Source: a virus (taxonomy: Duplodnaviria; Caudoviricetes). Taken from it: 38,018 nt of DNA. How positions within the stretch are numbered: the first letter of the stretch is position 1; each line of letters starts with the position of its first letter. Shown here piece after piece: positions 22,331 to 37,463 of the stretch. The translations under genes and the position numbers were made by a program. The notes under the pieces were generated by a model. It searched no databases and was not told the origin of the DNA. It saw nothing but the letters and a program-made list of their open reading frames with translations. The stretch is taken from the IMG/VR virus record IMGVR_UViG_3300029318_000026, positions 1 through 38,018 of that record. The stretch is one strand, 5' to 3'.

Positions 22331-22714
22331 CTACCACTGAATGTCGTCGTCCTTGTAAGGATTTGAGCTTGGCCCCATGCGCCCAGACTGAGGCGCGTTC
22401 TGCTTGCGAGAGCCGCAGAACTCAAAGCGGTAAGCGCGGATGTAAACCTTCTTGCGCTTGTTCCCCTCCTTGTCCGTGTACTCGTCGCACTTCAAAGACC
22501 CCTCGATAAACACCTCATCCCCCTTGTCCTGCGTGCAGATAAGCTCTGCCTGCTTGTCCCAAAGGGTGATGCTGTGCCAGTCGGTGGTCTTCTCACCCTT
22601 GGCAAAGCCTGACGTGGCGAGTGACACCTCCACTACCGGGGTGTTGCCAGCGCCCACGCGGCGCATCTCAGGTTTGGAGCCCAGTCGACCTTTAAGAATA
22701 ACGATGTTGGCCAT
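22331..22714 (-). CDS. ssb: Single-stranded DNA-binding protein
   Basis: NIVILKGRLGSKPE, TDWHSITLW, KGDEVFIEGSL and acidic tail DDDIQW. Confidence 0.92.
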   Translation of the reverse strand: MANIVILKGRLGSKPEMRRVGAGNTPVVEVSLATSGFAKGEKTTDWHSITLWDKQAELICTQDKGDEVFIEGSLKCDEYTDKEGNKRKKVYIRAYRFEFCGSRKQNAPQSGRMGPSSNPYKDDDIQW

Positions 22715-22829
22715 TGGCCATCCTCCTTTTCAGTGCCGCTCTCTTGCGGCGCATTAGAATCCTCAACTCTCTCTGCCAGCAAGGCTCACAGCGAACCTCG
22801 CCAGCACACACAAAACGCTTGCAGTCCAT
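22692..22829 (-). CDS. Small Cys-rich protein (45 aa)
   Basis: ATG with AAGGTG RBS; MDCKRFVCAGEVRCEPCW; fills the gap between neighbours. Confidence 0.45.
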   Translation of the reverse strand: MDCKRFVCAGEVRCEPCWQRELRILMRRKRAALKRRMANGQHRYS

Positions 22830-22834
22830 GCACC

Positions 22835-23032
22835 TTAGAGGTCCTGCGCTCCTTGCTTCTTGAGCCAGTCGGTTATCACTGCCCTGCTCAGCCTGCTTGG
22901 GCTCATGTGCGCGCCCAGGTTGCCAGGTTGCTTGTTGAACTCCCGGCAATAAGTCTCGATGGCTTCCTTGAGGTACTGCGGCATACGCACGCCGAGCACC
23001 ACCGTCTCTGTTGGTGTTGGCTTCTTCGCCAT
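22835..23032 (-). CDS. Ribbon-helix-helix-like DNA-binding protein
   Basis: VVLGVRMPQYLKEAIETYC...SPSRLSRAVITDWL pattern. Confidence 0.6.
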   Translation of the reverse strand: MAKKPTPTETVVLGVRMPQYLKEAIETYCREFNKQPGNLGAHMSPSRLSRAVITDWLKKQGAQDL

Positions 23033-23697
23033 TACTGCTCCTTCTTCCACTGGTTAAATCCATTACGACCTGCTTCGGTCCTAAGCTTGTCAAGCACCTT
23101 GCGTCGCTGTCCTTCATTCATCCCGCTCGGTCTGGGCATGCCCTTGGCCTCCAGGAAACCGGCAAGCTCGTTGTAATTTATGTCCAGCTCCATGGTCAGG
23201 ATGGCGCAGAAGCGCCCCCTGTTCTCTTGCCATGAGGGATGGTGCTTGGCCTTCCTCTGCTCTTCAGGGGTGCCGGTTGGCTCCTGCACCCCATCATCAA
23301 AAGGGACTTCAATCTCCGGAGGGCTGCTCACCGCTGCGTTGCCATCGTCATCAGGGTCATTCACGATGCCAAGGATGGCAGCCAACCCATAGCGTCTGGC
23401 GTAGGTTATACCTGAGCCATAGCCGTGAGCGTTCTGCTTCGAGGCCATCACCTTGGTGCATGACTGCACATACTCGCCACTCTCATGGCAGAGCATGGTG
23501 ATCACCTCGTCTCCATTGACTAGCTGTATGGCCGATAGACCATGCTTGGTAGCCTGACGCGCCGTGTCAGTCACACTCTCAAGCGTAGCGTATCTGCTCC
23601 TGAAGTGCGGGTTGTTGCCATCCATCGCTGCCTTCGGCTTGGTAGCCTGAAAGGCTGCAATGGCCTTGAATAGTTCCGGTCCTGGGTTACTCATCAT
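23032..23697 (-). CDS. erf: ERF-family ssDNA-annealing recombinase
   Basis: NPHFRSRYATLESV and the signature GSGITYARRYGLAAILGI..DDDG. Confidence 0.92.
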   Translation of the reverse strand: MMSNPGPELFKAIAAFQATKPKAAMDGNNPHFRSRYATLESVTDTARQATKHGLSAIQLVNGDEVITMLCHESGEYVQSCTKVMASKQNAHGYGSGITYARRYGLAAILGIVNDPDDDGNAAVSSPPEIEVPFDDGVQEPTGTPEEQRKAKHHPSWQENRGRFCAILTMELDINYNELAGFLEAKGMPRPSGMNEGQRRKVLDKLRTEAGRNGFNQWKKEQ

Positions 23698-23869
23698 TGC
23701 CCCCCTTTAGCTCCCAAGACACCACCCACTCGTCGGCGTCTTCGTCGTAGTTAATCTCCTCTGTGAAGTCCAGCAGCATGGTGTCATTGACCCGGCTACC
23801 TCCTAGCTTATTCTTGGCCAGCTCGACCATATCTTTGTAGGTGATCACCACCCTAGCCTCTGCCTTCAT
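23687..23869 (-). CDS. Hypothetical protein
   Basis: 60 aa, GGAGGAG RBS, coupled to erf. Confidence 0.55.
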   Translation of the reverse strand: MKAEARVVITYKDMVELAKNKLGGSRVNDTMLLDFTEEINYDEDADEWVVSWELKGGNDE

Positions 23870-23996
23870 CGCTCTCCTCCTTCTGGGTTTTCTCTATCCA
23901 CTGCGCCATCTCCTTGTAGGTCTGGTGTAGTGGGTGGTCAGGCTTGTCAGCCCCAATCTCCTTGAGCGTCAGCAGCGCTGACTTCTTACGCGCCAT
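23853..23996 (-). CDS. Hypothetical 47 aa protein (not in ORF track)
   Basis: MARKKSALLTLKEIGADKPDHPLHQTYKEMAQWIEK...; fills the operon gap. Confidence 0.5.
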   Translation of the reverse strand: MARKKSALLTLKEIGADKPDHPLHQTYKEMAQWIEKTQKEESDEGRG

Positions 23997-24001
23997 GATG
24001 T

Positions 24002-24238
24002 TCACCACTTCCTCCTCTTGGCCGGGGTGTAGTCGACTGTCGTGTAGTAACAGTGGCCATCCTCATTAGGGCAGATGATTGCACTGGAGCCATCTGTGAA
24101 CTCAATCCTCCACCCAAAAGACACCTGCCTTCTGTGGCTTGTATAATCTGGAGAGTCGCCCACCCATGTATCCCCGTGGCGGGATAAGCTTTCGACCGTC
24201 TTGCCCACTATCCACCGTTCCTGAAAGCCCGGCATCAC
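24002..24238 (-). CDS. Hypothetical protein
   Basis: 78 aa, overlaps the stop of the upstream gene. Confidence 0.55.
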   Translation of the reverse strand: MMPGFQERWIVGKTVESLSRHGDTWVGDSPDYTSHRRQVSFGWRIEFTDGSSAIICPNEDGHCYYTTVDYTPAKRRKW

Positions 24239-24828
24239 TTCCTCCTAGTGTGAGTGCCATCTACCCACTCGATGGTGACCACGGGCTCTCCGCGCTCATC
24301 GAGCAGGGGTGTCGCTGTCTCTGCCCACTCAAGCAGAGCATCCTTGTCCACCCGATAGACCACCTCCTCTACCTTCACATCCCCAGGTAGCAGGTGCTCG
24401 TTACGCTTGGACCAGACTGGCTTGGGGTACGTCTCCTTCTGTACCAGCCATGCCTTCGACCCATCGGGTAGCTTCATCGACTTGCCCTCCTCCTCGCCCA
24501 GGGTGGCTTGCCTGCTGTGGAAGATGGCGATGCCAAGCTCCTTGCACCTGTCGATGGTCCGCTGGTTAGCCTTGATAGCCTTCTGAAACGTAGCCACCTG
24601 TGCCTTGAGAGCCTCGATGTCCTGCTCAGCCCGCTTCTTTGCGAAGTCAATCCGCAGGTACTTCTCTGAGAGGTCACCCTCGTATTGGTTGAGCGCCTCC
24701 TTCACTGCCCGTGCAGCCTCAGCCACCTCGTCAGTCAAGCCCTCGTCAGCCTCCCTCTGGAACAACTCAGAGAGCCGCATGGCTAGCTCCTCGCCGTCCC
24801 TCATCAAGTCATACGTTGTCTTACTCAC
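24235..24828 (-). CDS. Siphovirus Gp157/Mu Gam-like coiled-coil protein
   Basis: GTG start with AAAGGGGG RBS; long coiled coil then LLPGDVKVEEVVYRVDKDALLE; near erf. Confidence 0.6.
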   Translation of the reverse strand: MSKTTYDLMRDGEELAMRLSELFQREADEGLTDEVAEAARAVKEALNQYEGDLSEKYLRIDFAKKRAEQDIEALKAQVATFQKAIKANQRTIDRCKELGIAIFHSRQATLGEEEGKSMKLPDGSKAWLVQKETYPKPVWSKRNEHLLPGDVKVEEVVYRVDKDALLEWAETATPLLDERGEPVVTIEWVDGTHTRRK

Positions 24829-25066
24829 TGGTCCCCCTTTGGAAATCCTCGATGGTCTGCACAATGCACTCTTGTGTGGGGTTTGCGCGCCACCCATCAC
24901 GCCTAGTCCGCACCTCTTCGATAACCCAGCACCCTGACAGCGGGTGACTACGCTCAAAGTGGATTGTCGCCTTCTGCGGCGTTGCTGCGTGTTCATAACG
25001 CCTTACGGCGGCGACATCTGATGCCCTAAAGGCTAACGACTCGCCGCCCTTAACAATGACTCTCAT
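24821..25066 (-). CDS. Hypothetical protein
   Basis: MRVIVKGG..., coupled to the methyltransferase-like stop. Confidence 0.5.
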   Translation of the reverse strand: MRVIVKGGESLAFRASDVAAVRRYEHAATPQKATIHFERSHPLSGCWVIEEVRTRRDGWRANPTQECIVQTIEDFQRGTSE

Positions 25067-25665
25067 CAACATAACCCACCCCACTGTGTTGCCATCGCGT
25101 CAGCGATGCCTTGAAACGTCTTCGACCTCACCTTCCACCTATCCTCGGAGGGCGGCAGGTTGTACCACTTGGGCAAACTCCTGCCCGACTTGGTAACGTG
25201 TCGCTCCCCCTTACTCACCACATTGCTGGGCTTAAGCTCAGGCAACCCGCTCAACCACAACCCAGTCTTCTTTGATGCGCTGTCTCCGAACTGCCAAGGC
25301 TGCACCCACTGGCTAGCCTTCATCGGCAGCACCCCGACAGGGTTCTCCATGCACACACGGGGGCACACCTCATTGGCTCGCTCCCACAGAGACATGGTCC
25401 ACTCGATAGCCTCAAGCCTCATGCTGTGCTTGGGCTTGCCCTTGCCGTACCAGCGGTTGCCAGACACGCATAGCGCCGTGCATGGCGGGTGCATCACAAT
25501 CATATCCCACCGCCCCTCCTCTAGCAGTTCACCCACATCCATCTGCAAGTGGTGCGGTGAGCCGTCGTCAGCGGGCAACAGGTCGCACGACCAGGCGTCA
25601 TGCCCCAGCGCCCGAAAGGCTTCGCGCACTGTGCCGCTGTACTCACACGCGATCAGCACTTTCAT
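25066..25665 (-). CDS. Short DNA cytosine-C5 methyltransferase-like protein
   Basis: VLIACEYSG (motif I variant), SCDL, HPPCT (catalytic PC), ENPVG, QPWQFG, KKTGLW and RSKTFQGIADAMA. Confidence 0.8.
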   Translation of the reverse strand: MKVLIACEYSGTVREAFRALGHDAWSCDLLPADDGSPHHLQMDVGELLEEGRWDMIVMHPPCTALCVSGNRWYGKGKPKHSMRLEAIEWTMSLWERANEVCPRVCMENPVGVLPMKASQWVQPWQFGDSASKKTGLWLSGLPELKPSNVVSKGERHVTKSGRSLPKWYNLPPSEDRWKVRSKTFQGIADAMATQWGGLC

Positions 25666-25849
25666 AGTGCCCCTCCTCTACTCGCCTAAGGTGGTAGGCC
25701 CAAAAGGCCTCCACCTCGTCTCCACAGGTTGATACAATGGGCGCACCAGCAATGCGGTTATGGACGTATTCCCATGCCGCCTCAGCGCGCCCGAACTCGT
25801 AGCCACTACGCCACGCCTGCTCCCTCTCATCTTCGCTACTCGCCTGCAT
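25643..25849 (-). CDS. Hypothetical protein
   Basis: ATG with AAGGAGG RBS; 68 aa. Confidence 0.5.
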   Translation of the reverse strand: MQASSEDEREQAWRSGYEFGRAEAAWEYVHNRIAGAPIVSTCGDEVEAFWAYHLRRVEEGHYESADRV

Positions 25850-26063
25850 CGACAACCTCCTTATGGATGCCCTTGATGACCTCCAGGCACCCCTCAATCC
25901 ACCTGATGTCCACCGCCATCTCATTAGCCCGGTTGGACCCAATGGGCTCTTCTCTCAGCACGCTGCGGCACAGGCTCTCAAGACTAGAGAACTCTCGTCG
26001 GTACCTTGCTTCCCTTGCCTGCTTCATACCCTTCGGTGTCAGACGCAAAAGCTCATCGCTCAT
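25836..26063 (-). CDS. Hypothetical protein
   Basis: MSDELLRLTPKG..., overlaps both neighbours. Confidence 0.5.
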   Translation of the reverse strand: MSDELLRLTPKGMKQAREARYRREFSSLESLCRSVLREEPIGSNRANEMAVDIRWIEGCLEVIKGIHKEVVDAGE

Positions 26064-26229
26064 CACGCACCCCCAAGTGCCGGAAGAATGACAGGTCAGA
26101 TACCTTAGGGTTCTGCCCGTCCAGGTCATCGAGCAGTATCTCGATAGACAGGCCCGCGTTGCGCACCTTGCCTTGCTTCAGCTCCTCGTAGATGGTCTCA
26201 ATAGCTCTAATGATATCAGCGGTTTCCAC
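26053..26229 (-). CDS. Hypothetical protein
   Basis: GTG with AAGGAGG RBS just downstream of the predicted promoter. Confidence 0.5.
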   Translation of the reverse strand: METADIIRAIETIYEELKQGKVRNAGLSIEILLDDLDGQNPKVSDLSFFRHLGVRDER

Positions 26230-26257
26230 GCTGCCTCCTTGTGTCATGGGTGTTGCG

Positions 26258-26286
26258 TACTTAGCACGCGTGTTGCTGGGTGTCAA
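26258..26286 (-). promoter_or_regulatory. Sigma70-like promoter
   Basis: TTGACA-17-TAAGTA with TG at the extended -10 position. Confidence 0.55.
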
Positions 26287-26304
26287 CGGAGTTGGCGCTG
26301 GGGC

Positions 26305-26559
26305 CTAAGGGTTTTTTTCAAGGTCGCTTACGAGGTTGTCCAGCTGGATTGCTGCGTCCTCGTCTATCGCTGCTAGCTCGTCTATGGCGTCGGCCACCTT
26401 TCTAAGGGCGTCCTCTCGCTGCAGTTGCCAACGCTCTTGCTCTGCCTCTCGCGCCAACTCGTTCTCTGTCGGTCGATCATCATAGTCAGGCTCAGCGTAG
26501 TACTCAGCGTGCTCCCTAGCCCCCTCAACGGTGCGCGTGTAATAGTCATGCTTGCTCAT
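26305..26559 (-). CDS. Hypothetical acidic protein
   Basis: GGAGGTG RBS, MSKHDYY..., 84 aa. Confidence 0.55.
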   Translation of the reverse strand: MSKHDYYTRTVEGAREHAEYYAEPDYDDRPTENELAREAEQERWQLQREDALRKVADAIDELAAIDEDAAIQLDNLVSDLEKNP

Positions 26560-26756
26560 GCTGTCACCTCCTCGACGCAGCAACTCTGTTCTATGTACTC
26601 AAGGTCATCTTTGTCTACGGTGACCCTGCCCTCTGCCTCGATGTGGTCAACGATGTCCGCAACGCTAGCGTGCAGCGCCTCAAGCAGCTGCGACCCGTCG
26701 ACCTCTTGGTCGTAGTCAAACCAGACATCAAATGTAAACCTGTACTTGTCTCTCAT
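26556..26756 (-). CDS. Hypothetical acidic protein
   Basis: AAGGGGG RBS, MRDKYRF..., 66 aa. Confidence 0.55.
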   Translation of the reverse strand: MRDKYRFTFDVWFDYDQEVDGSQLLEALHASVADIVDHIEAEGRVTVDKDDLEYIEQSCCVEEVTA

Positions 26757-26785
26757 CTCATCCCCCTTGGATTGCTGTGTTAAAG

Positions 26786-26930
26786 GTGCCCCCTCCCCAC
26801 CGGGGAGAGGGCGTGCGACGCCCACCGCTTACGCGGCGTGACTGGTGTGCTCAAGCGTGGGATTGTTTTGCCCCTGTGCTATCGCGTACGTCTCAGGCTC
26901 CCCCATCCGGGGCTACTCCCACCAGTCACC
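26786..26930 (-). ncRNA. Candidate structured intergenic RNA
   Basis: 10 bp inverted repeat GTGACTGGTG/CACCAGTCAC enclosing sub-hairpins, followed by three consecutive hairpins including a GUAA tetraloop. Confidence 0.5.
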
Positions 26931-26931
26931 A

Positions 26932-27105
26932 TTACCCCTCACTTACGTCGCTGCGAGGGCCGGGTTTAATCTCTCCCCTTGATTCCCTTTCCTCCACCCT
27001 GTCAAGGATGCCGTCTACGATGGAGTTGCGCAGGGCCACGCAGTCTGCGCAGAACCCCTCACCCCTCTCCACGTGGCTCATCATGCATCGCGGTTGGTCG
27101 CTCAT
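26932..27105 (-). CDS. Hypothetical Cys-containing protein (57 aa)
   Basis: Repeat-borne RBS; CMMSH...CADC. Confidence 0.5.
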   Translation of the reverse strand: MSDQPRCMMSHVERGEGFCADCVALRNSIVDGILDRVEERESRGEIKPGPRSDVSEG

Positions 27106-27183
27106 CTCATCCCCCTTGGATTGCCATAGCAATCAGTGTCGCGTAAGTGCTTATAAGTATTAGTGTTAATGCGTGGTTGTGAA

Positions 27184-27465
27184 TCATGCCCAGCCCTCCT
27201 CGCCATTGATGACGGCGTCCAAGTATTCGCGTTCCTCGTTTGCTTCCCATGGGAACTCATAAACCTTGTCGCCCGTCTTCGGGCTCACCTGCCAGTCAGG
27301 GTCATACCCTGGCAGCAAGGGCGCCCTATGGTGCAGCCAGTTCTCAATCGAGTGCGCCACCTCAGCAAGCCCGCGCTCGTGGTTATTGTCTAGTGCCTGC
27401 CATCGTCGCGCCTTGCGCGCTGCGTTCACAGCAAGTTCTCTGAGTAATACGTTGATGTCTGCCAT
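27184..27465 (-). CDS. Hypothetical protein
   Basis: 93 aa, AAGGGGG RBS. Confidence 0.6.
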   Translation of the reverse strand: MADINVLLRELAVNAARKARRWQALDNNHERGLAEVAHSIENWLHHRAPLLPGYDPDWQVSPKTGDKVYEFPWEANEEREYLDAVINGEEGWA

Positions 27466-27475
27466 GCTGTCCCCC

Positions 27476-28156
27476 TTAGTGCTGCTTTAGGTGTACGTGT
27501 GTCTGTCCCTTGTCGAAGCATCCGCCCTTGCCACATCGTGTGGCGCATGCTCCCTTGTCTTTCTCCCATGTCTTAGCGCATAGGTGGCGCTCTTCGCCTG
27601 TCAGGGTCTCGAAGGCCTCATCATCGCCGAAGAACATGGTTGACCAACCCTCGGCGTCGAGGCTCGCCTGCTCCTCGCGCGTTGTATCCACGTCTGTCGA
27701 CGCTTGGATGCGAGCGTTAGGAAACTCGCGCATGATGGCCACGATCAGGGGACGCATGCGCTTGCTACGCCATGCCCTAGTGGGTATCCAGAAGAGCCTA
27801 TCTGGGTTGGCGGTCAGTAGGTCGCGCACCCTGATAATATCGGACGGGTCGCGGAAGGCTTCACCCCGTGTCATGAGGCGCACCCTGTCGGTCTGGTTAC
27901 GCTTACGACCTAGCGTGTCGCGCAAAGCCTTGCCTGTCAGGCGTTGCCACGATTGCTCATTACGCACGTCGCGTCTGTCGATGTCCCGCTGGTACATCTT
28001 CATGAACTTGAGATTGAAGCAATCGTCGCATGCTGAGGTCCGCCAAAGGCACGAGCCCTTAGCAGCGACGCGCCCCTGGTCGTCGCGGATGGTAAAGATA
28101 GGCCGGTCGATTGCGAACATACCAAGGTCCGCGCAGTATCGGTGTTCTACATTCAT
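27476..28156 (-). CDS. GP88-like protein (radical-SAM-related, Cys-rich)
   Basis: SCLWRTSACDDCF Cys triad, RVRLMTRGEAF, FWIPTR, NARIQASTD and a C-terminal C..C..C..C cluster resemble the phage gene product 88 family. Confidence 0.65.
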   Translation of the reverse strand: MNVEHRYCADLGMFAIDRPIFTIRDDQGRVAAKGSCLWRTSACDDCFNLKFMKMYQRDIDRRDVRNEQSWQRLTGKALRDTLGRKRNQTDRVRLMTRGEAFRDPSDIIRVRDLLTANPDRLFWIPTRAWRSKRMRPLIVAIMREFPNARIQASTDVDTTREEQASLDAEGWSTMFFGDDEAFETLTGEERHLCAKTWEKDKGACATRCGKGGCFDKGQTHVHLKQH

Positions 28157-28219
28157 GGGTAGCTACTCCCGGTTTGAGTTATGGGTTGCTTATTTGCTTG
28201 GGTTTATCCACGTGCGGCG

Positions 28220-28444
28220 CTATTTTTCGATAGCTACGAGCCAACGTCCCTCAGGGCCTAGGCGCAAAGCATCTTTGCTCACCTGATGCTTTGTCATCGC
28301 CTTTGTCCCGGTCGGATCTATCGTTATCGATCCTTCTCTCAGCTTTTCGTTCACGAGCCATTTGGCGTCATCTGTATATGGTGCGTAGTAGCGCTCTGCT
28401 TGCCATGTCGATCGAAAATATGCGGTTCCGATTAGGTGAGTCAT
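28220..28444 (-). CDS. Hypothetical protein
   Basis: GAGGA RBS preceded by the AACCCATAACCCAAA leader motif. Confidence 0.6.
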   Translation of the reverse strand: MTHLIGTAYFRSTWQAERYYAPYTDDAKWLVNEKLREGSITIDPTGTKAMTKHQVSKDALRLGPEGRWLVAIEK

Positions 28445-28508
28445 GGTGTCCTCGTTTGGGTTATGGGTTGAAGGTTTGTGAATCGTTCCACGTGGTAAGG
28501 GTGAGCGC

Positions 28509-28537
28509 TAAATAGCACGCGCTCAGTGTGCTGTCAA
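28509..28537 (-). promoter_or_regulatory. Sigma70-like promoter with overlapping inverted repeat
   Basis: TTGACA-17-TATTTA with extended TG; TGAGCGC/GCGCTCA inverted repeat flanks the -10. Confidence 0.55.
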
Positions 28538-28549
28538 CATTGTTAACGG

Positions 28550-28939
28550 TTAGGCGTTACCGCACCAGTACTCTTCGCATCCCATCCCATGCTCTGGGCA
28601 ATGTGCGATGGACGCCTCAGCAAGCGCCATTTCGTAATCCCACATCACGCCGGAGATGTGGTCGAATCGTTCACGGAGGGCGCTCATGCATGCGTCCCTG
28701 TTGCACGTCGACGTTGGCGGCGCGTGGATGGTTGCGCCGGAGAGGGCTACCAGGGCAGGGGTATAAACCCAGCATCGCACCTGGAACCTAATCCCTAGCG
28801 CCCCCTTATGCTTGCCGCTAAATGTGACCCACCAATCACCCCTCTGCAGGGGGCCGTGGAAGTGCTCTGCAGTCGCTGGTTTTGGGTCGTCCATCATTGC
28901 GCGCCACCGCTTAATTTCGTCGTGTACCTTGTAGTTCAT
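28550..28939 (-). CDS. Hypothetical protein, C-terminal C/H cluster
   Basis: 129 aa, starts MNYK inside the 32 bp repeat; ends HCPEHGMGCEEYWC. Confidence 0.6.
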   Translation of the reverse strand: MNYKVHDEIKRWRAMMDDPKPATAEHFHGPLQRGDWWVTFSGKHKGALGIRFQVRCWVYTPALVALSGATIHAPPTSTCNRDACMSALRERFDHISGVMWDYEMALAEASIAHCPEHGMGCEEYWCGNA

Positions 28940-29311
28940 GCTGTCCTCTCTGGGGTTAGTTGTGGTTCATGCTGCGCATGGCCGCACTCGCGGCCGACTC
29001 GAAGTCGGCAAACGTACACAGCTCGTCGATTCGGTCGTTGAAATCGCAGGGGTCGATATCGCTCGGCCGGTCTGGGGTGTCGTCGATGTCGCCAGACTCC
29101 ACAGCATGCATGTAATCCGGGTAGTTCATCCATCGTCGGACGATTGAGAAGGTCCCGTCGATATCCTCGTTGTCGATGATGTAGTGCGCGCCGTCACCGC
29201 CGCGTGGCGTCGTGCCGAAGTGCCACGCGCTAACGCTCCAATCGGCGTTCAGTCCGCATCTAGTGAGACCTTTGCAATTCTTGTAGTTCATGCTGTCCTC
29301 TCTGGGGTTAG
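28928..29311. repeat. 32 bp direct repeat pair (28928-28959, 29280-29311)
   Basis: Identical CTTGTAGTTCATGCTGTCCTCTCTGGGGTTAG, covering the RBS and first four codons (MNYK) of two adjacent genes. Confidence 0.92.
28956..29291 (-). CDS. Hypothetical acidic protein
   Basis: 111 aa, Asp-rich, bracketed by the 32 bp repeats. Confidence 0.6.
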   Translation of the reverse strand: MNYKNCKGLTRCGLNADWSVSAWHFGTTPRGGDGAHYIIDNEDIDGTFSIVRRWMNYPDYMHAVESGDIDDTPDRPSDIDPCDFNDRIDELCTFADFESAASAAMRSMNHN

Positions 29312-29422
29312 GGGGTTAATCAATCGCAAGAAGAGCCAACAACTAACGGGTCAGAGTGTCGCGAGACGTTGACGCGCTACGTTATAGGCTGTTCTTGAGG
29401 CTGATTAGGTTTAAGCGCTCAG

Positions 29423-29585
29423 TGCTGCGGGCGGGATTCGAACCCGCGAACACCTCAGGTGATCACCCTGAGGCGGCTTCAATCCAGGCTGCAAGGGCTT
29501 ACATTAAATATACGCGGCCATATCCGCGCCCCTGCCTACCCGCTCCGCTGCGTCGACTCAGCTTACGCTCCGTGCCTTCCGCAGC
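29423..29585 (-). ncRNA. tRNA-like RNA (163 nt) with large internal insertion
   Basis: Acceptor stem GCTGCGG/CCGCAGC+A, perfect T arm GCGGG-TTCGAAT-CCCGC, long variable-arm-like hairpin; about twice normal tRNA length; no encoded CCA. Confidence 0.65.
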
Positions 29586-29599
29586 ACTGAAAACTTAAA

Positions 29600-29902
29600 C
29601 CTTCCCCGAAGGGTTGGACACGTTCAGGTAGCGCCCGGCGCACACACACTTTAGCCATGCCAGAGCTGGCTCGTTCGGTGTCACCTTACCAGCGCCCCAC
29701 AAGGGCGCATCGCGTCTAGGTCCTAGCTCCTAAGCCGTCGACCTATCGCTTTCCCGGTTACGGCCTTTCACCGCGTCGGGACACACTCACACCATACGCG
29801 GGGTCTGCTACACCACGCGCATCCTGAGTCCTTCTGTGGGGTGACCAGCCCCAGCCAGCGCACACACCTGTGGCGCCGTATGGTCATCGGGGTGCTACCC
29901 CG
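29600..29902 (-). ncRNA. Candidate large structured RNA upstream of the tRNA-like domain
   Basis: Dense hairpins with UAGCA, UGAAA and UUCG loops; no ORF of 60 aa or more. Confidence 0.45.
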
Positions 29903-29926
29903 TCTCTCCTTTTGGGTTATGGGTTG

Positions 29927-30157
29927 TTAGTTTATTGGGGTGTGGGCTTCGTTGTACTTGACCCTACCGATGGTCGTTTCAACCCGACCGTCAATCATCG
30001 ACAAAAGCACGTCTTGCGCTTCTGCCATATCTGTGGCGAGTTGGCTGAGCGCCCCGAAGTCGTCTCTGGTCTCTATCTGCGCCAGCATAACTTTCATGCT
30101 CTGGTCCTCGATCACTTCGATAGCTGCAGCGAGTATCCCGGCTTGCTTCCTAGTCAT
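29927..30157 (-). CDS. Hypothetical protein (first leftward gene)
   Basis: MTRKQAGIL..., 76 aa, preceded by a variant of the leader motif. Confidence 0.55.
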   Translation of the reverse strand: MTRKQAGILAAAIEVIEDQSMKVMLAQIETRDDFGALSQLATDMAEAQDVLLSMIDGRVETTIGRVKYNEAHTPIN

Positions 30158-30360
30158 GGTGTCTCTCGTGTGGGTTGTGGGTTGTTTGGATTGCCTGACT
30201 GGGCCAGTATCGCCCATCGGCTTGAGGACGGTTTACGAGTAGAGTATCACCTCACTTGATGCCCCAAGGGGCTCATCGCTCCGCCCGCTGATGTTAGCGG
30301 CGTGGTCGGCTACGTTGTCAGTCTCTCCGTGTCTCAAGGTCAGTCCCCGTCGACATCTGT

Positions 30361-30420: not shown

Positions 30421-30620
30421 AAAAGCTCAATGTTCCCACTGGGTTACCGATGAACTTTTTTGGGATGATGTTCACTGGGTGGTGCGAGGGTGTATAGGCT
30501 ACCCCCCTCCATCCATTAATCCGGATGAACGGGTCAAGCTCCGAGGCCCTCCTCCCTGGGCGCATACGAATGACGGGCGCATACGCGTAGCAAGGGGCAT
30601 GCCAATAGGGATGGGGTGGG

Positions 30621-30683
30621 ATGACGCACTGTGTCATGGGGTGATGACGCACTGTGCCATGATGGTATGACGCGGCGTGTCAT
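30621..30683. repeat. Three quasi-palindromic 17 bp repeats at 23 bp period
   Basis: ATGACGCACTGTGTCAT (30621), ATGACGCACTGTGCCAT (30644), ATGACGCGGCGTGTCAT (30667). Confidence 0.85.
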
Positions 30684-30846: not shown

Positions 30847-30875
30847 TATACAAAACCCTCAAAACGTGCTATAAT
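30847..30875 (+). promoter_or_regulatory. Rightward sigma70 promoter
   Basis: TATACA-17-TATAAT with extended TG (TGCTATAAT) in an AT-rich patch. Confidence 0.65.
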
Positions 30876-31148
30876 ATTGATATATGATACATATTAGAGA
30901 GTTAGCGGTGCGTAGACTGTACGCTTCGCTAACACTCGGGCCCAACCGGTGGCTTTGGGGGTAGAAGTTTGGATGGCTTCGGCGGTTTGCTTTTGTGCAA
31001 AGCCGCCGTGTTTGGAGTAGGAGCTACTCCGGTGGCGTTTCGCCAACGTGCGTAGCGACATTCCCGGAGATGGTGAGATTTGGTAGGAGTCGCCTTGTTG
31101 GTGATCTCCGCTATATAGAAGCGCGCAGGCGCGCGCGAGGTGCTTGGT

Positions 31149-31859: not shown

Positions 31860-32972
31860 ATGGCTGACAAGGTCAGCAGTATCCTTAGTGGCATCTCATC
31901 GGGCTTAAGCGACCCCTTTGAGTTGGGGTTTGATTTTGGGGTCGACGAGCTTGACCCTTCGCAGTTTGACAAGGGCACCCCTGAGCCCGGACGTTTTGAC
32001 GAGACCCCCGCGACTCGCGCGAAGCGCAGGTCTATTCTTGAGCGGCGTGGGCGTCTTTTAGACGCATCCCAGATACCCACTGTTGAGTCGGAGCTTTCGA
32101 TGTCGACTGGGTCTCAGTACGGCACGGACACTAGGACTTCAGGCCTTGATGGTTTTGACTGGCGCACGGGCACGGTAATCCACCCTACTACTGGCGAGAT
32201 TGTAGACGCGCTTGAGCTTGAGTCGGAGCTTGTTAAGCACAGGGCGTCTGGCCCATCCGCTGGCCCATCTTCAACTCCGTCCAGCCGAAGCTTTGAGGTT
32301 AGCCGCCTCGGCGCGGGGTATAAGCGTGGGCACGTAGAGAGGGTTGCCTCTGAGTTTGGCGTCGATGACTTCGACTACGATGCTGATGTGAAGCGCGCGC
32401 GCGATGCAATGTTCCCCCGCCCACCCGCCGTTTCAGAGTTGTCTGACGACCCCATTGACCTCTCGCGCCGAAAACTTGGCCAGCGCAGTTCTGAGCTTAT
32501 TAGGGGCGACAAGGGCTTCATTAGCGGCGTAGCGCCATCAGCACGGTCTACCGCTGCTCGTGGACTGTCTACCGCCATGGGCGTAGCAGCCGCTCCAATC
32601 ATTGACTACGCACTCGACCCAGAGTCGCGCACACCTGTCCAGTTTGCACGCGCACAGGAAGAGGCCATCACGGGTATGGTGCCAGGGCTCGTGAGCCCCT
32701 CTGAGCTTCCGCCTCCAGCCGTTCTCCCGCCTGACCGCGTCAAAGCGGTCGAGGCTACGCAGGGTATGGCTGGCGTGGCTCCTGACACCAAGTCACCCAA
32801 CGTGACTGAGCAAGAGGTGCGCGCCTATATCTCCAACAAGGTCGCCAAGGGAGATAAACTCCCAGCATGGGCACAGAAGATTACCTCAATGAAGGGTGGC
32901 AGGCTCTCCATTAAGCCCGTTAACCCGCGAACAAAGGCACGGCAGGAAGCCGCTAAAAGTGGAGCTAAGTGA
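31860..32972 (+). CDS. Hypothetical low-complexity protein
   Basis: 370 aa, AGGAG RBS; C-terminal KARQEAA. Confidence 0.65.
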   Translation: MADKVSSILSGISSGLSDPFELGFDFGVDELDPSQFDKGTPEPGRFDETPATRAKRRSILERRGRLLDASQIPTVESELSMSTGSQYGTDTRTSGLDGFDWRTGTVIHPTTGEIVDALELESELVKHRASGPSAGPSSTPSSRSFEVSRLGAGYKRGHVERVASEFGVDDFDYDADVKRARDAMFPRPPAVSELSDDPIDLSRRKLGQRSSELIRGDKGFISGVAPSARSTAARGLSTAMGVAAAPIIDYALDPESRTPVQFARAQEEAITGMVPGLVSPSELPPPAVLPPDRVKAVEATQGMAGVAPDTKSPNVTEQEVRAYISNKVAKGDKLPAWAQKITSMKGGRLSIKPVNPRTKARQEAAKSGAK

Positions 32973-33250
32973 TGGCAAAATACCCAGGTGACGCCGAGGT
33001 CGATCGTGTTGTCATGGAGAACACAAAGAGCTACCGCGCCAAACACGGACGCGACGAGCCTTTGCGCGGGGACGAGCCCGAGTGGCTCTTAGCCTCTATC
33101 AAGAGGGTGCGGGCAAAGCTGGGACCAGCGGGTCAGCCTCGCCCTAAGGCGCGGAAAGAGGCTGCTGCATCGCTGGCTAAAAAGAAGTCGGCTAAGCGAC
33201 CGCACAACCCCCGAATGGGCCAAACTAAGCGTAAATACGGGGGTTATTAA
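32972..33250 (+). CDS. Small basic protein
   Basis: Coupled to the upstream stop; contains KARKEAA. Confidence 0.65.
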   Translation: MAKYPGDAEVDRVVMENTKSYRAKHGRDEPLRGDEPEWLLASIKRVRAKLGPAGQPRPKARKEAAASLAKKKSAKRPHNPRMGQTKRKYGGY

Positions 33251-33268
33251 CTTCCACTGAACGAGGCC

Positions 33269-33297
33269 TTGACATCCCCTGGGGCTTCGTTCAGTCT
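33269..33297 (+). promoter_or_regulatory. Sigma70-like promoter inside an inverted repeat
   Basis: TTGACA-17-CAGTCT; repeat arms at 33256-33268 and 33283-33295. Confidence 0.55.
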
Positions 33298-33303
33298 CTT
33301 CTC

Positions 33304-33393
33304 ACCCTCGGAGTAGCTCTCCTTTGGGTTATGGGTTCCATCCCGCTTCATCTGTTGTCACGAGTTGTCACCAGCGGTCGCGGGATGGTTTTA
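33304..33393 (+). ncRNA. Candidate antisense small RNA / operon leader
   Basis: Upstream promoter, 5' hairpin GGAG-TAGCT-CTCC, seed TTTGGGTTATGGGTT, closing stem CCATCCCGC/GCGGGATGG followed by TTTT. Confidence 0.55.
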
Positions 33394-33421
33394 CGTGTCT
33401 TTTCTATACAGGGGATTAGTT

Positions 33422-33685
33422 ATGAACTGGTGCATGGAGAAAAGGTTTCTTCCAAACGGAGACTTGAGCGGTTTTGATGTGGGTCATTACACGCCTGTTG
33501 ACAGGCTCGGTTTGCCTGCTGAGTTGAGTTTTAAAGTGCTGAAGACCTTCTGGGTCAAAGACGAGCATTACGATCATCTTTGTTGGGAGGATAAGGATGC
33601 GATGGCTTTCAGTAGGGCGGCGAGCCTTGTGTCTTTTTTGAACGGTGGGCCGACACCTCCTGAAGACACCCGTTGGGACCGATAG
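33422..33685 (+). CDS. Hypothetical protein (87 aa)
   Basis: AGGGGA RBS; stop overlaps the likely helicase GTG. Confidence 0.6.
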   Translation: MNWCMEKRFLPNGDLSGFDVGHYTPVDRLGLPAELSFKVLKTFWVKDEHYDHLCWEDKDAMAFSRAASLVSFLNGGPTPPEDTRWDR

Positions 33686-35025
33686 TGGATCCTATATTTC
33701 TACCGCAGAGCAGCAGTGTCGAGCGTGAGGTGCTCGCATGCTTGCTCTTAGACCCTTCCAAAACACCCTCGGTGTCCAGCCGTCTGACTGGGGAGGACTT
33801 CCATAACGACGTTAATCGCTTCATCTGGGACGGTATGGTTGTGGCGCATGAGCGCCATACGGACTTTGATGGCGTAGTGCTCGAAGAAGTCATGCGTGAT
33901 CAGGGCTCATGGGGCCGTGTAAGCGGTGGTGACCTCGTCAAGCTCATGGATAGAGCCGGCTCAACCTCCATGCTTGACACCTATGTGGACCGCTTGCTGG
34001 AGATGACCGCTAGGCGCCGCATGCATCAGGCTGCTGAGCAGCTATCATCCATCGCTATAGATGGGGACCTCAGCCCAGGAGAAGCACTCTCCGAGGCTGA
34101 GGCGTTGGTAGGGCGTCTGAGGGAGTCAGGTGAGAATCTAACGGATGGAGATGATGCGGGACCTGTAGTCAATGACTACATGAAGATGGTACACGCCATC
34201 CAGAAGGGTGAAAAGAAGCCGCCACGTATCTCCACAGGCCTCTATCCGCTGGACAAGGCTACCGGAGGAGGCTTTCGACCCGGCTGGTTGGTGCTAGTCA
34301 TGAGCCTTAACGGCCATGGCAAGACCGCGTTGTCCGTAAATGGCTTTGCATGGGCGGTTGCCCACGAGCAGAAGCGACCTGCGCTCATTGTCAGCCTAGA
34401 GATGCCCGCTGATCAGATAATCGGACGGCTTATTGCCGCCGATTCTGGCATCCCGGTGCAACTTCATGACCAGGAAGGCCTCAACGAGGACCAGTTAGTG
34501 GCCCTTACGCACGCTGCACACCGTGTTTCAGCCGCCCCAATCAGGGTGGTTGGCCACCAAGCGGGCACAATCGACGGTGTTAGGCAGGCTGCTCGGTCCT
34601 ATAAGGCCCAGAAAGGGGACCTTGGCATCATTGTGGTGGACTATATCCAGCTAATGAGGTCCCAAAAGCGCAGCAGTAACCGAACTGAGGAGCTTGAGCA
34701 GATAAGTCGGGGCCTAAAAGAGCTTGCTATGGAGTTAGATTGCGTGGTGATTAGCATCTCTCAACCCACAATGGCGGCTAAGAGGACGAAAGAGCGTCCA
34801 ACTATCCGCGATTCCAAGGGTTCAGGAGCAATCGATGATGATGCTGATTTGGGTCTTGTGCCTTGGCTGCTACATAATGTTAACGAAAACGCTAGCCCTT
34901 GGGAGGCGCAGATTGGCATGGATAAGTTCCGCCACGGCCCCCGTCGCAACCTATATGAGAGCGATATTGAGTGGGATGGCAGCAGAACTCGTTTCATTTC
35001 TGCGGGATTAAGGCATCGTGGCTAA
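33685..35025 (+). CDS. dnaB: Replicative DNA helicase, DnaB family (start 33685 or 33673)
   Basis: N-terminal VEREVLACLL..DFH; ISTG..LD..TGGF.PG.L, GHGKT, SLEM, IVVDYIQLM, ISRGLKELA, SGAIDDDAD and KFRHGP. Confidence 0.93.
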   Translation: MDPIFLPQSSSVEREVLACLLLDPSKTPSVSSRLTGEDFHNDVNRFIWDGMVVAHERHTDFDGVVLEEVMRDQGSWGRVSGGDLVKLMDRAGSTSMLDTYVDRLLEMTARRRMHQAAEQLSSIAIDGDLSPGEALSEAEALVGRLRESGENLTDGDDAGPVVNDYMKMVHAIQKGEKKPPRISTGLYPLDKATGGGFRPGWLVLVMSLNGHGKTALSVNGFAWAVAHEQKRPALIVSLEMPADQIIGRLIAADSGIPVQLHDQEGLNEDQLVALTHAAHRVSAAPIRVVGHQAGTIDGVRQAARSYKAQKGDLGIIVVDYIQLMRSQKRSSNRTEELEQISRGLKELAMELDCVVISISQPTMAAKRTKERPTIRDSKGSGAIDDDADLGLVPWLLHNVNENASPWEAQIGMDKFRHGPRRNLYESDIEWDGSRTRFISAGLRHRG

Positions 35026-36419: not shown

Positions 36420-36916
36420 GCGTCTTTGCGCCAGAGGGCGGCGACATTGGCAACGCCAAGGAAATCTCCTCTAAGGACGTTATCGTTTACAATCAGGACG
36501 CTCGCTCAGGCGGAATCGGCAAGGCGACCCTTGTGGAGGGTCTGATTGCCGAGTGTGTTGTGAGTTGTAAGCAGTCCCTAGATGTTGTCTATTACAACCA
36601 GACAGACATGAGCATCGAGGACGCGCTCATCTCGTCGTTCAAGCTTATCGGCATGGAGTTGATGAATCTTGTCGCCATGCTGTCTGGATACCATGACGCA
36701 GCGCTCCGACCTAAGCACCGCGCTTGCCGCCAGATTGTGGTGAATATGCTTGAGCGTATGCAGTCCAACGACATCCAAGAGGATGCCGAGGCAGAAGACC
36801 TTGAGCTTTTTGCCAAGGATGCTGTTCGCTTTTTTGAGTGCATGCACGTGTGTATGCTTGAGGAGACAGATCGAAAGAAGCGACATCGCTGGAAAAAGAG
36901 GTTTTTAGATGGCTGA
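36416..36916 (+). CDS. Hypothetical protein
   Basis: 166 aa, coupled on both sides. Confidence 0.6.
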   Translation: MSVFAPEGGDIGNAKEISSKDVIVYNQDARSGGIGKATLVEGLIAECVVSCKQSLDVVYYNQTDMSIEDALISSFKLIGMELMNLVAMLSGYHDAALRPKHRACRQIVVNMLERMQSNDIQEDAEAEDLELFAKDAVRFFECMHVCMLEETDRKKRHRWKKRFLDG

Positions 36917-37463
36917 AGCGCCCGTGCATTACCCTGAACCTGAGGACATCATCCTCACCACCCAGGAGAGGGCGATGAAGAAGCGTATGCTTCGCGTCCT
37001 TGAGGCTCTTGAGGCTGGCCACAGCCGCCAATCGGCGGCATCCATGGCTAACGTGTCGCCTCACACGGTGAAGGTATGGGCTCGCAAGGGTCAGAAAAAC
37101 CTAACGCACTCTCTGTATCCATGGTTTTACCATGAAATCAGCCGTTCAGAGGGTGTTGGTGAGTCTCTCTTTGCAGACATTGTTATTCGAGAGGCCACCG
37201 AGAAACACAACTGGCGCGCTGCGATGTTCGTGTTGCAGAAGAGATACAAGTGGAACGATAGGCCAGAGATGGATGACGAGGTCCAGAGAGAGCAGCAGAA
37301 GGCTCAGCTTGCCAAGACTAAGGCTGATACGGTCTACGTTGAGGCCCGCACCACCAAGCTCAAGGAGGACAGCGAAGAGATTGTCCTCGACCGTCTGCGC
37401 GATATCTTGAATGAGGTCCGCGAAGAGGTGAAGCCGAGTGTCAAGGAAGAGCAAGTCAACTGA
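36909..37463 (+). CDS. terS: Terminase small subunit
   Basis: HTH (ALEAGHSRQSAASMANVSPHTVKVW), WRAAMFVLQKRY, directly upstream of terL. Confidence 0.72.
   Translation: MAEAPVHYPEPEDIILTTQERAMKKRMLRVLEALEAGHSRQSAASMANVSPHTVKVWARKGQKNLTHSLYPWFYHEISRSEGVGESLFADIVIREATEKHNWRAAMFVLQKRYKWNDRPEMDDEVQREQQKAQLAKTKADTVYVEARTTKLKEDSEEIVLDRLRDILNEVREEVKPSVKEEQVN

Follow-up and report, generated by a model that had tools for sequence, protein, structure and literature searches.

A conserved candidate small RNA upstream of a phage helicase operon with complementarity to a tag shared by early leaders on the opposite strand

The window, by which we mean the whole 38,018-nt stretch of DNA that was analysed, is a circular phage genome of 38 kb with a terminal overlap of 77 nt. 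A plus strand run leads from a DnaB-like helicase gene (33673..35025; phrog_19, E 6e-77; Pfam DnaB_C) through terminase to P22/SU10-like head genes identified by a profile scan. A minus strand block (22331-30156) contains SSB, Erf, a methyltransferase, a GP88-like gene (27476-28156; Pfam GP88, E 3.9e-6) and many small ORFs, and on this gene content we take it to be the early block. The helicase is the first conserved gene of the operon 3' of the candidate RNA described here, and a variable gene slot lies between the two. This slot (33400-33680) is hypervariable among relatives. Judged by eye from sequence motifs, we take the slot gene upstream of the helicase to be methyltransferase-like in L007 and L154 and sigma-region-4-like in L011.

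A sequence-only reading of this DNA had described a phage with no evident repressor. A scan of the 55 ORFs of the window yielded no integrase and no CI-type repressor match, but the description was overstated: ORF 22835-23032 on the minus strand (65 aa) is ribbon-helix-helix-like (Atlas score of 0.92 to a cluster with 12% RHH_1 carriers), has no Pfam match and possibly encodes a transcription regulator. No cultured relative was found among 50,697 phage records, in which the closest helicases were ~31% identical and the RNA element gave only two chance-level matches. In the 19 of 64 parts of a genome collection that were scanned, the best cellular helicase relatives were 25-34% identical and no close prophage was present among the 80 helicase loci listed. 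With ARAGORN, neither the window nor 18 loci yielded a tRNA or a tmRNA. The gap between the divergent gene blocks also contains three head-to-tail 23-nt copies (30615-30683) that could be origin or packaging repeats.

The sequence-only reading had placed a promoter, a small hairpin and a stem followed by TTTT at 33.3 kb, and all of these elements were found at the positions given. The predicted promoter is of the sigma-70 type (33269..33297, plus strand), with TTGACA at 33269-33274, a 17-nt spacer, CAGTCT at 33292-33297 and a predicted start at A33304. This start is the first base of hairpin 1 (33304..33329), which carries a UAGCU loop and was defined by predicted folding and covariation. The plus strand sequence CTCTCC...ATGGGTT (33317-33337) includes a G/U-rich seed (UUUGGGUUAUGGGUU; 33323..33337) that was delimited by 15-mer counts, alignment and folds, and the 3' half of which is predicted to be open. 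A long terminator-like stem with a short U tract follows (33338..33392; arms 33338-33346 and 33380-33388, TTTT 33389-33392). Folding of 33256-33400 gave z = -4.1, and the segment 33304-33392 is likely to give a small RNA of ~90 nt. A consensus scanner called neither the promoter of the RNA (-10 element, 3/6) nor the terminator (four U), and support for both therefore comes from conservation. The terminator is likely to be leaky, with read-through expected because the U tract is short and is missing in L146. Two early promoters, at 28509-28537 and 26258-26286, are of the same sigma-70 type as that of the RNA, so the RNA need not appear late.

A 16-bp hairpin overlaps the promoter (33256..33295, plus strand) and directly follows the stop codon of ORF 32969-33250. 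It is likely the 3' end structure of the upstream transcript, and it is missing in L016, L022, L025 and L026. Two predicted promoters, at 33256-33295 (plus strand) and 28502-28525 (minus strand), lie within inverted repeats that, in RNA form, might terminate the transcript arriving from upstream.

Most folds leave the UAGCU loop and UUAUGGGUU unpaired, and in the ensemble of the window's own sequence an alternative pairing between loop and seed competes. The loop and 3' arm of hairpin 1 are complementary to the SD and the SD-AUG spacer of the targets discussed below. As nucleotides 33317-33329 form this 3' arm, the anti-SD part is predicted to be paired; the anti-SD stretch that had been proposed is indeed complementary to the SD of the targets, but it would be sequestered within hairpin 1. 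The statement that the 33.3-kb motif precedes no credible minus strand ORF proved correct, only a 4-codon ORF following it on that strand. We also considered that the unit might serve as a minus strand leader, and this was ruled out by the 4-codon ORF, the distribution of G·U pairs and the plus strand direction of the promoter. A structured plus strand leader at 30990-31130 (z = -2.8), located behind a promoter at 30847-30875, contains GAGCTACTCC, the reverse complement of the hairpin 1 loop region.

Helicase searches recovered relatives from 99% down to 49% identity. We examined 48 loci, 45 within the clade and 3 outgroup loci (helicase 35-38%), counts that include redundant contigs. The order promoter, hairpin, G/U-rich seed and long stem was present upstream of the helicase in 41 of the 45 clade loci, 36 found by pattern and 5 as a diverged form. 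The four clade loci without the unit are contigs that end too early, 180-587 nt upstream, and the unit was found in 0/3 outgroup loci. The promoter TTGACA-17-(C/T)AnnnT is kept with a purine 7 nt further on, while the spacer, the upstream gene and the downstream gene vary. An alignment was built from 21 distinct sequences; the diverged L026 type was left out and folded separately. Across both stems, 92.0% of 398 cells were paired and 9 of 19 pairs showed two-sided changes. Hairpin 1 contributed 90.4% paired cells with two-sided change at 4/10 pairs, and the long stem 93.7% with two-sided change at 5/9 pairs. Pairing in shuffled controls was 87.8%, with 0/500 reaching the real value in a test that is inflated by relatedness, and slid controls gave 46-55%. 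The UAGCU loop columns were invariant in all 21 aligned sequences, and the seed columns were nearly invariant although predicted to be open, whereas the apical part of the long stem is free to vary.

In 22 sequences, the number of G·U pairs per fold was 2-11 on the plus strand and 0-3 on the minus strand, which identifies the plus strand as the RNA strand. An RNA model built from the alignment gave one strong match per genome, matched the L026 type weakly (E 0.03-0.9) and gave no match in the outgroup loci. The kept elements, the G·U bias and the covarying stems support a conserved, promoter-driven structured RNA on the plus strand, as had been proposed. An Rfam search yielded nothing near the gathering score in the window or in 33200-33450, and the suggestion that this search might return the C4 or CI families was not borne out.

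The seed recurs in the early block. Allowing up to 3 mismatches, the 15-mer TTTGGGTTATGGGTT occurs five times in the window, always on the plus strand: at 28173 (1 mismatch), 28455 (0), 29911 (0), 30169 (2) and 33323 (0). Shuffled sequences contained a mean of 0.53 copies and 0/100 reached 5. On the minus strand, four of the copies take the form of AACCC(A/C)AACCC-type tags, each placed a few nucleotides 5' of an SD-like word; the fifth is intergenic and precedes the helicase operon. The tag is strand-locked, 8 early blocks containing 40 sites in the sense and 2 in the antisense orientation; the motif is thus strand-specific and not the orientation-independent DNA site that the sequence-only reading had named among the findings that would refute it. 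Tags were found 5-35 nt before an ATG ORF at 17/30 sites compared to 595/3000 random positions, and in the 12 genomes used for the count all exact copies of the 10-mer fell within the early block.

Population contigs from runs X1 and X2 leave the window at position 29927, at the tag, and enter another early module. The tag marks a recombination junction, and recombination can therefore homogenise the copies; concerted evolution among the leaders is real, as this module switching shows. It would explain less easily how one inverted copy within a fixed fold keeps pace with the others. L014 has two copies of a CTGAAGACTGATTCGAG-type motif, inverted and near tags (~1320-1380 and 1716-1752), and a motif related to CTGAAGACTGATTCGAG lies beside tags in G001 and L130.

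Pairing partners on both strands were ranked with a scan of our own rather than with IntaRNA; it combines ViennaRNA duplexes with opening energies and uses a 7-bp seed. This accessibility-aware scan replaced duplex energies calculated without accessibility, which were too noisy. Of the non-self sites in the window, the best predicted partner was on the minus strand at 29904..29925 (-20.4 kcal/mol), where a conserved non-coding region has its 5' end. The translation-initiation region of the GP88-like gene (28157..28187, minus strand) was second (-19.8 kcal/mol, rank 2 non-self), and pairing at this site would cover the C/A-rich tag, the SD and the spacer up to the AUG. The leader of ORF 28220-28444, directly upstream of its SD (28455..28469, minus strand), was third (-15.7 kcal/mol), and the 15/15 match claimed for it was confirmed with 0 mismatches. 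The predicted duplexes at these three sites cover 29904-29924, 28157-28186 and 28455-28468. A weak tag copy in the leader of the ORF starting at 30156 (30169..30183, minus strand; 2/15 mismatches) fell outside the top 25, and this site, given previously as 30171, carries a pair-breaking U>C change. The next non-self match in the window was -12.4 kcal/mol and is the best plus strand match, inside the helicase gene. Four mRNA leaders had been put forward as targets. Those at 28157-28187 and 28455-28469 held up, whereas the 29904 site heads a non-coding region and the 30171 site is weak. Likewise, the expectation that these leaders would be the top matches was satisfied in our scan by three of the named sites but not by 30171.

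The sum of the top three sites in the early block was -55.9 kcal/mol, versus -20.6 to -48.1 for shuffled seeds, 0/14 of which reached the real value. Single shuffled seeds reached -17.5, so the third site taken alone is within chance. Twelve genomes were scanned, 4 as a whole (the window and three others) and 8 over 4.7-10.5 kb, and in 12/12 the best non-self match was a minus strand site in the early block. A site matching that at 29904 also ranked first in G002, L011 and L152, and the GP88-leader site was best or near-best in G001, G004, L147 and L160. Many of these duplexes run from the tag across the SD into the spacer, whose AGCUA matches the loop.

Seed and tag were then compared between lineages. 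The word CCCATAAACCC, the seed with one extra base, was found in the early blocks of L147 (3 copies) and L011 (1 copy), the two genomes with that seed, and in 0/10 other genomes. The common word CCCATAACCC was present in 6 of the 8 genomes with the common seed, the other two having wobble-type variants; it occurred once in L011 and was absent from L147, G002 and G003. The RNA of G002 and its best site have a lineage-specific 12-mer in common, with no exact copy of the genome's own seed word being found. CCCAAAA is common to the seed and the leaders of G003, and no CCCATAA was found on the mRNA strand of that genome. The GGGUUAAUGGG seed type (L017, L135, L138, L154, L022) was left out of the early-block comparison. 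In a cross test of six seed types by eight early blocks, in which G004, L001 and L011 were represented by stand-ins of their own seed type, the own seed type was strictly best in 4/8 blocks and within 2.1 kcal/mol of the best in 7/8. The own seed of L011 was clearly worse (-47.6 vs -62.8), and L147 also has two leaders that match the seed of another lineage. Mismatches among the tags comprised 15 that keep pairing as G·U, 21 that break it and 6 at a U position, with no clear favour for keeping. The seed/target covariation that had been predicted is seen in part, across about three lineage switches counted without a tree; the L011 cross test and the mosaic leaders of L147 speak against it, and gene conversion may contribute to it.

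The inverted copy in the RNA and the tags change together in some relatives, and the RNA therefore likely silences the tagged genes by pairing. The reading that we consider probable is antisense control, in which the ~90-nt RNA would block translation of several early mRNAs by pairing in trans. The promoter would produce a short RNA by partial termination at the stem, and read-through would feed the helicase-terminase operon. UUAUGGGUU, being open, and the UAGCU loop would make the first contacts, after which pairing would zipper through hairpin 1. Once bound, the RNA would keep ribosomes off the opposite-strand early mRNAs by occupying their C/A-rich tag, SD and spacer. The outcome may be that early genes are turned off with a delay, while the RNA builds up; we put this at somewhat less than even chances and favour it over a role of the RNA in immunity or dormancy, which seems doubtful. 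More tentatively, an RNA circuit might time this integrase-less phage: address tags fused to ribosome-binding sites would be read by an RNA from the replication leader that shuts the genes off, a second, early non-coding RNA with the best copy of the tag would act as its sponge, and seed variants would define immunity-like groups among co-infecting relatives.

The most serious alternative, although an improbable one, is that the unit is a cis-acting leader of the helicase operon (an attenuator or a nut-like antitermination site) bound by protein at the UAGCU hairpin, with the complementarity to early leaders being a relic of an inverted leader copy whose likeness gene conversion maintains. The order promoter, hairpin, terminator, RBS and operon in every case, the weak U tract and the coincidence of tags with module junctions would suit such a leader. 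The GP88 leader and 29888-29902 also bear sense-oriented hairpins with U(A/C)GC(U/A/G) loops, and the RNA model weakly matches the reverse of the GP88 leader (E 0.19-0.81), which fits common descent. However, a cis-acting leader would leave unexplained why an open seed remains complementary across 40-50% helicase divergence, and why it tracks a 1-nt insertion or whole-seed changes. Moreover, the inverted copy is single and occupies one fixed structural position in 41 loci, and the RNA model gives one strong match per genome.

Still less probable is that pairing is real and control is reversed or two-way, such that read-through into the replication operon is set by early transcripts, above all the 29590-29930 RNA, through binding to the nascent leader or titration of the small RNA. 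Complementarity is symmetric, the top-ranked site in the window and in G002, L011 and L152 falls at the 5' end of a non-coding region, and CI of P4 acts on termination by pairing (PMC4825925, in the part concerned with CI). Most of the other sites, however, straddle SD and start codons, as expected of translational targets; folds of 22 sequences contained no conserved strong antiterminator helix, and the non-coding region was detected by BLAST in just 5 other fetched contigs, partially. A DNA-level site (a protein operator or recombination repeat) or a plain translation enhancer like the Cluster K SAS, with no RNA-pairing role for the 33.3-kb copy, is very improbable. In its favour, C/A-rich stretches alone enhance translation (PMC3879156), start-associated repeats of unknown role are in print (PMC3203893), the mismatch spectrum is 15 keeping versus 21 breaking and an RHH-like protein is encoded. 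Against it, covariation of the stems involves G·U pairs on a single strand only, the motif is not palindromic and keeps to one strand (40 to 2), and the lone inverted copy lies behind its own conserved promoter.

Among known systems, antisense control as proposed here most resembles the action of GcvB. The GcvB seed is G/U-rich and the RNA is Hfq-dependent. One RNA acts on many mRNAs through C/A-rich enhancer stretches just upstream of the SD, according to the GcvB portion of PMC3879156. An own promoter and a 3' terminator stem, as in a GcvB-like mode, are indicated here by conservation, with a weak U tract, and the conserved exposed seed is predicted to be complementary to several translation-initiation regions. 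GcvB differs in being a host metabolic regulator without sequence relation to this unit, whereas here a phage RNA would act on phage targets through 14-30-nt duplexes.

C4 of P1/P7 and CI of P4 had been named as analogues; some features are alike, but the unit belongs to neither family. The C4 model (RF01695) gave no match at E up to 5 in the window or up to 10 in 33200-33450. C4 resembles the RNA predicted here in having two exposed regions, one covering the RBS and one an upstream address, and in that seed/target variants give specificity between related phages (both from the C4 section of PMC5320573). Unlike the two hairpins in series of the present unit, C4 has three stem-loops (P1-P3), and it is processed by RNase P from a precursor whereas a primary 5' end is predicted here. 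In addition, the candidate targets here are several unrelated early genes in opposite-orientation transcripts 3-5 kb away, and the integrase/antirepressor context of C4 was not found among the 55 ORFs. CI of P4 is likewise an RNA from a terminator-bearing operon leader ahead of replication genes (the relevant section of PMC4825925), and the present unit lies upstream of DnaB in 41/45 loci. CI pairs with seqA and seqC of its own transcript to cause termination (same section of PMC4825925); the best plus strand match here is -12.4 kcal/mol and the strong sites are all in the opposite-strand early block. IsrK of Gifsy-1 also occurs as short and read-through forms from an operon leader, but it activates its own read-through message (PMC4825925, passage on IsrK).

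Well-studied lytic phages carry out early shut-off with proteins, as exemplified by T4, in which the endonuclease RegB and the repressor RegA switch off early messages at translation-initiation regions (part of PMC3014915). The presumed job is the same, done there by proteins and here by RNA. Most of the phage antisense RNAs covered in the pertinent part of one review target a single gene that they overlap, lysogeny, or genes of the host (PMC12197685). VpdS of VP882 and PreS of lambda are phage-encoded trans-acting sRNAs, with VpdS affecting phage and host mRNAs; they differ in being Hfq-bound and in belonging to temperate phages with mainly host targets, and that part of the review describes no dedicated repeated tag on their own early leaders (PMC12197685). 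A literature search that covered few subscription journals returned no phage sRNA directed against a tag common to the early leaders of the same phage, and six seed words were absent from 6 supplementary files of PMC10690425 (those other than files 1, 2 and 4). We regard 33304-33392 as probably representing a new family of small RNAs whose functional kind is already known; comparative support for it is good. If true, a conserved RNA acting on many early genes of the same phage via a co-evolving tag would be a new layout of phage gene timing. The natural seed/tag variants would offer ready-made orthogonal pairs for reporters, though phage and host are uncultured.

This reading would also offer a concrete interpretation of start-associated repeats, a puzzle since 2011. 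The SAS of Cluster K is an asymmetric repeat at the starts of non-structural genes with one reversed copy lacking a gene start, the reversed SAS having been reported in Cluster K1 mycobacteriophages (SAS passages of PMC3203893); its role was still unknown in 2024 (the portion of PMC11373665 on SAS). Its sequence is unrelated to that of the tag. In Anaya and Angelica, the reversed SAS lies in the loop of a long intergenic hairpin (L248 29760-29990, corresponding to Anaya 59759-59989). The intergenic region had matches in 178 records and the hairpin is conserved (L248, L249-L256); no Rfam family matched it. In Unicorn and Amgine the hairpin loop is changed while the SAS is not, so covariation with the SAS failed in both of the two divergent phages. 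We treat the reversed SAS as a comparable RNA only as a lead.

The best predicted partner site, 29904-29925, begins a second conserved structured non-coding region (29590..29930, minus strand). Its counterparts are L152 6575-6922 (89% over 328 nt) and G002 36772-37047 (83% over 135 nt), and an alignment of the 3 sequences showed two-sided change at 14/84 pairs. BLAST of the region gave partial matches in 5 other contigs among those fetched; no Rfam family was found at threshold and no match was found in cultured phages. An ATG at 29888 behind the 29904 site opens 39 codons, is ACG in L152 and is absent in L011 and G002. As this frame is short and not conserved, the 29904 site is probably not a protein leader, and the region is possibly a target or a sponge of the small RNA.

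At 29407-29602 (minus strand), 24-nt inverted arms enclose a tRNA/tmRNA-like piece with an acceptor-like stem, a long variable arm and a T arm. It was matched by the tmRNA model at E 1.3e-5 (18.9 bits, below the gathering score of 47) and was negative with ARAGORN. The piece is absent in L152 and L011, and 20 letters stand in its place in run X2. Hairpins with a U(A/C)GC(U/A/G) loop recur in the sense orientation at 33310-33322 (plus strand) in the small RNA, at 28157-28170 (minus strand) in the GP88 leader and at 29888-29902 (minus strand) in the non-coding RNA, where they may constitute a protein operator or a kissing loop.
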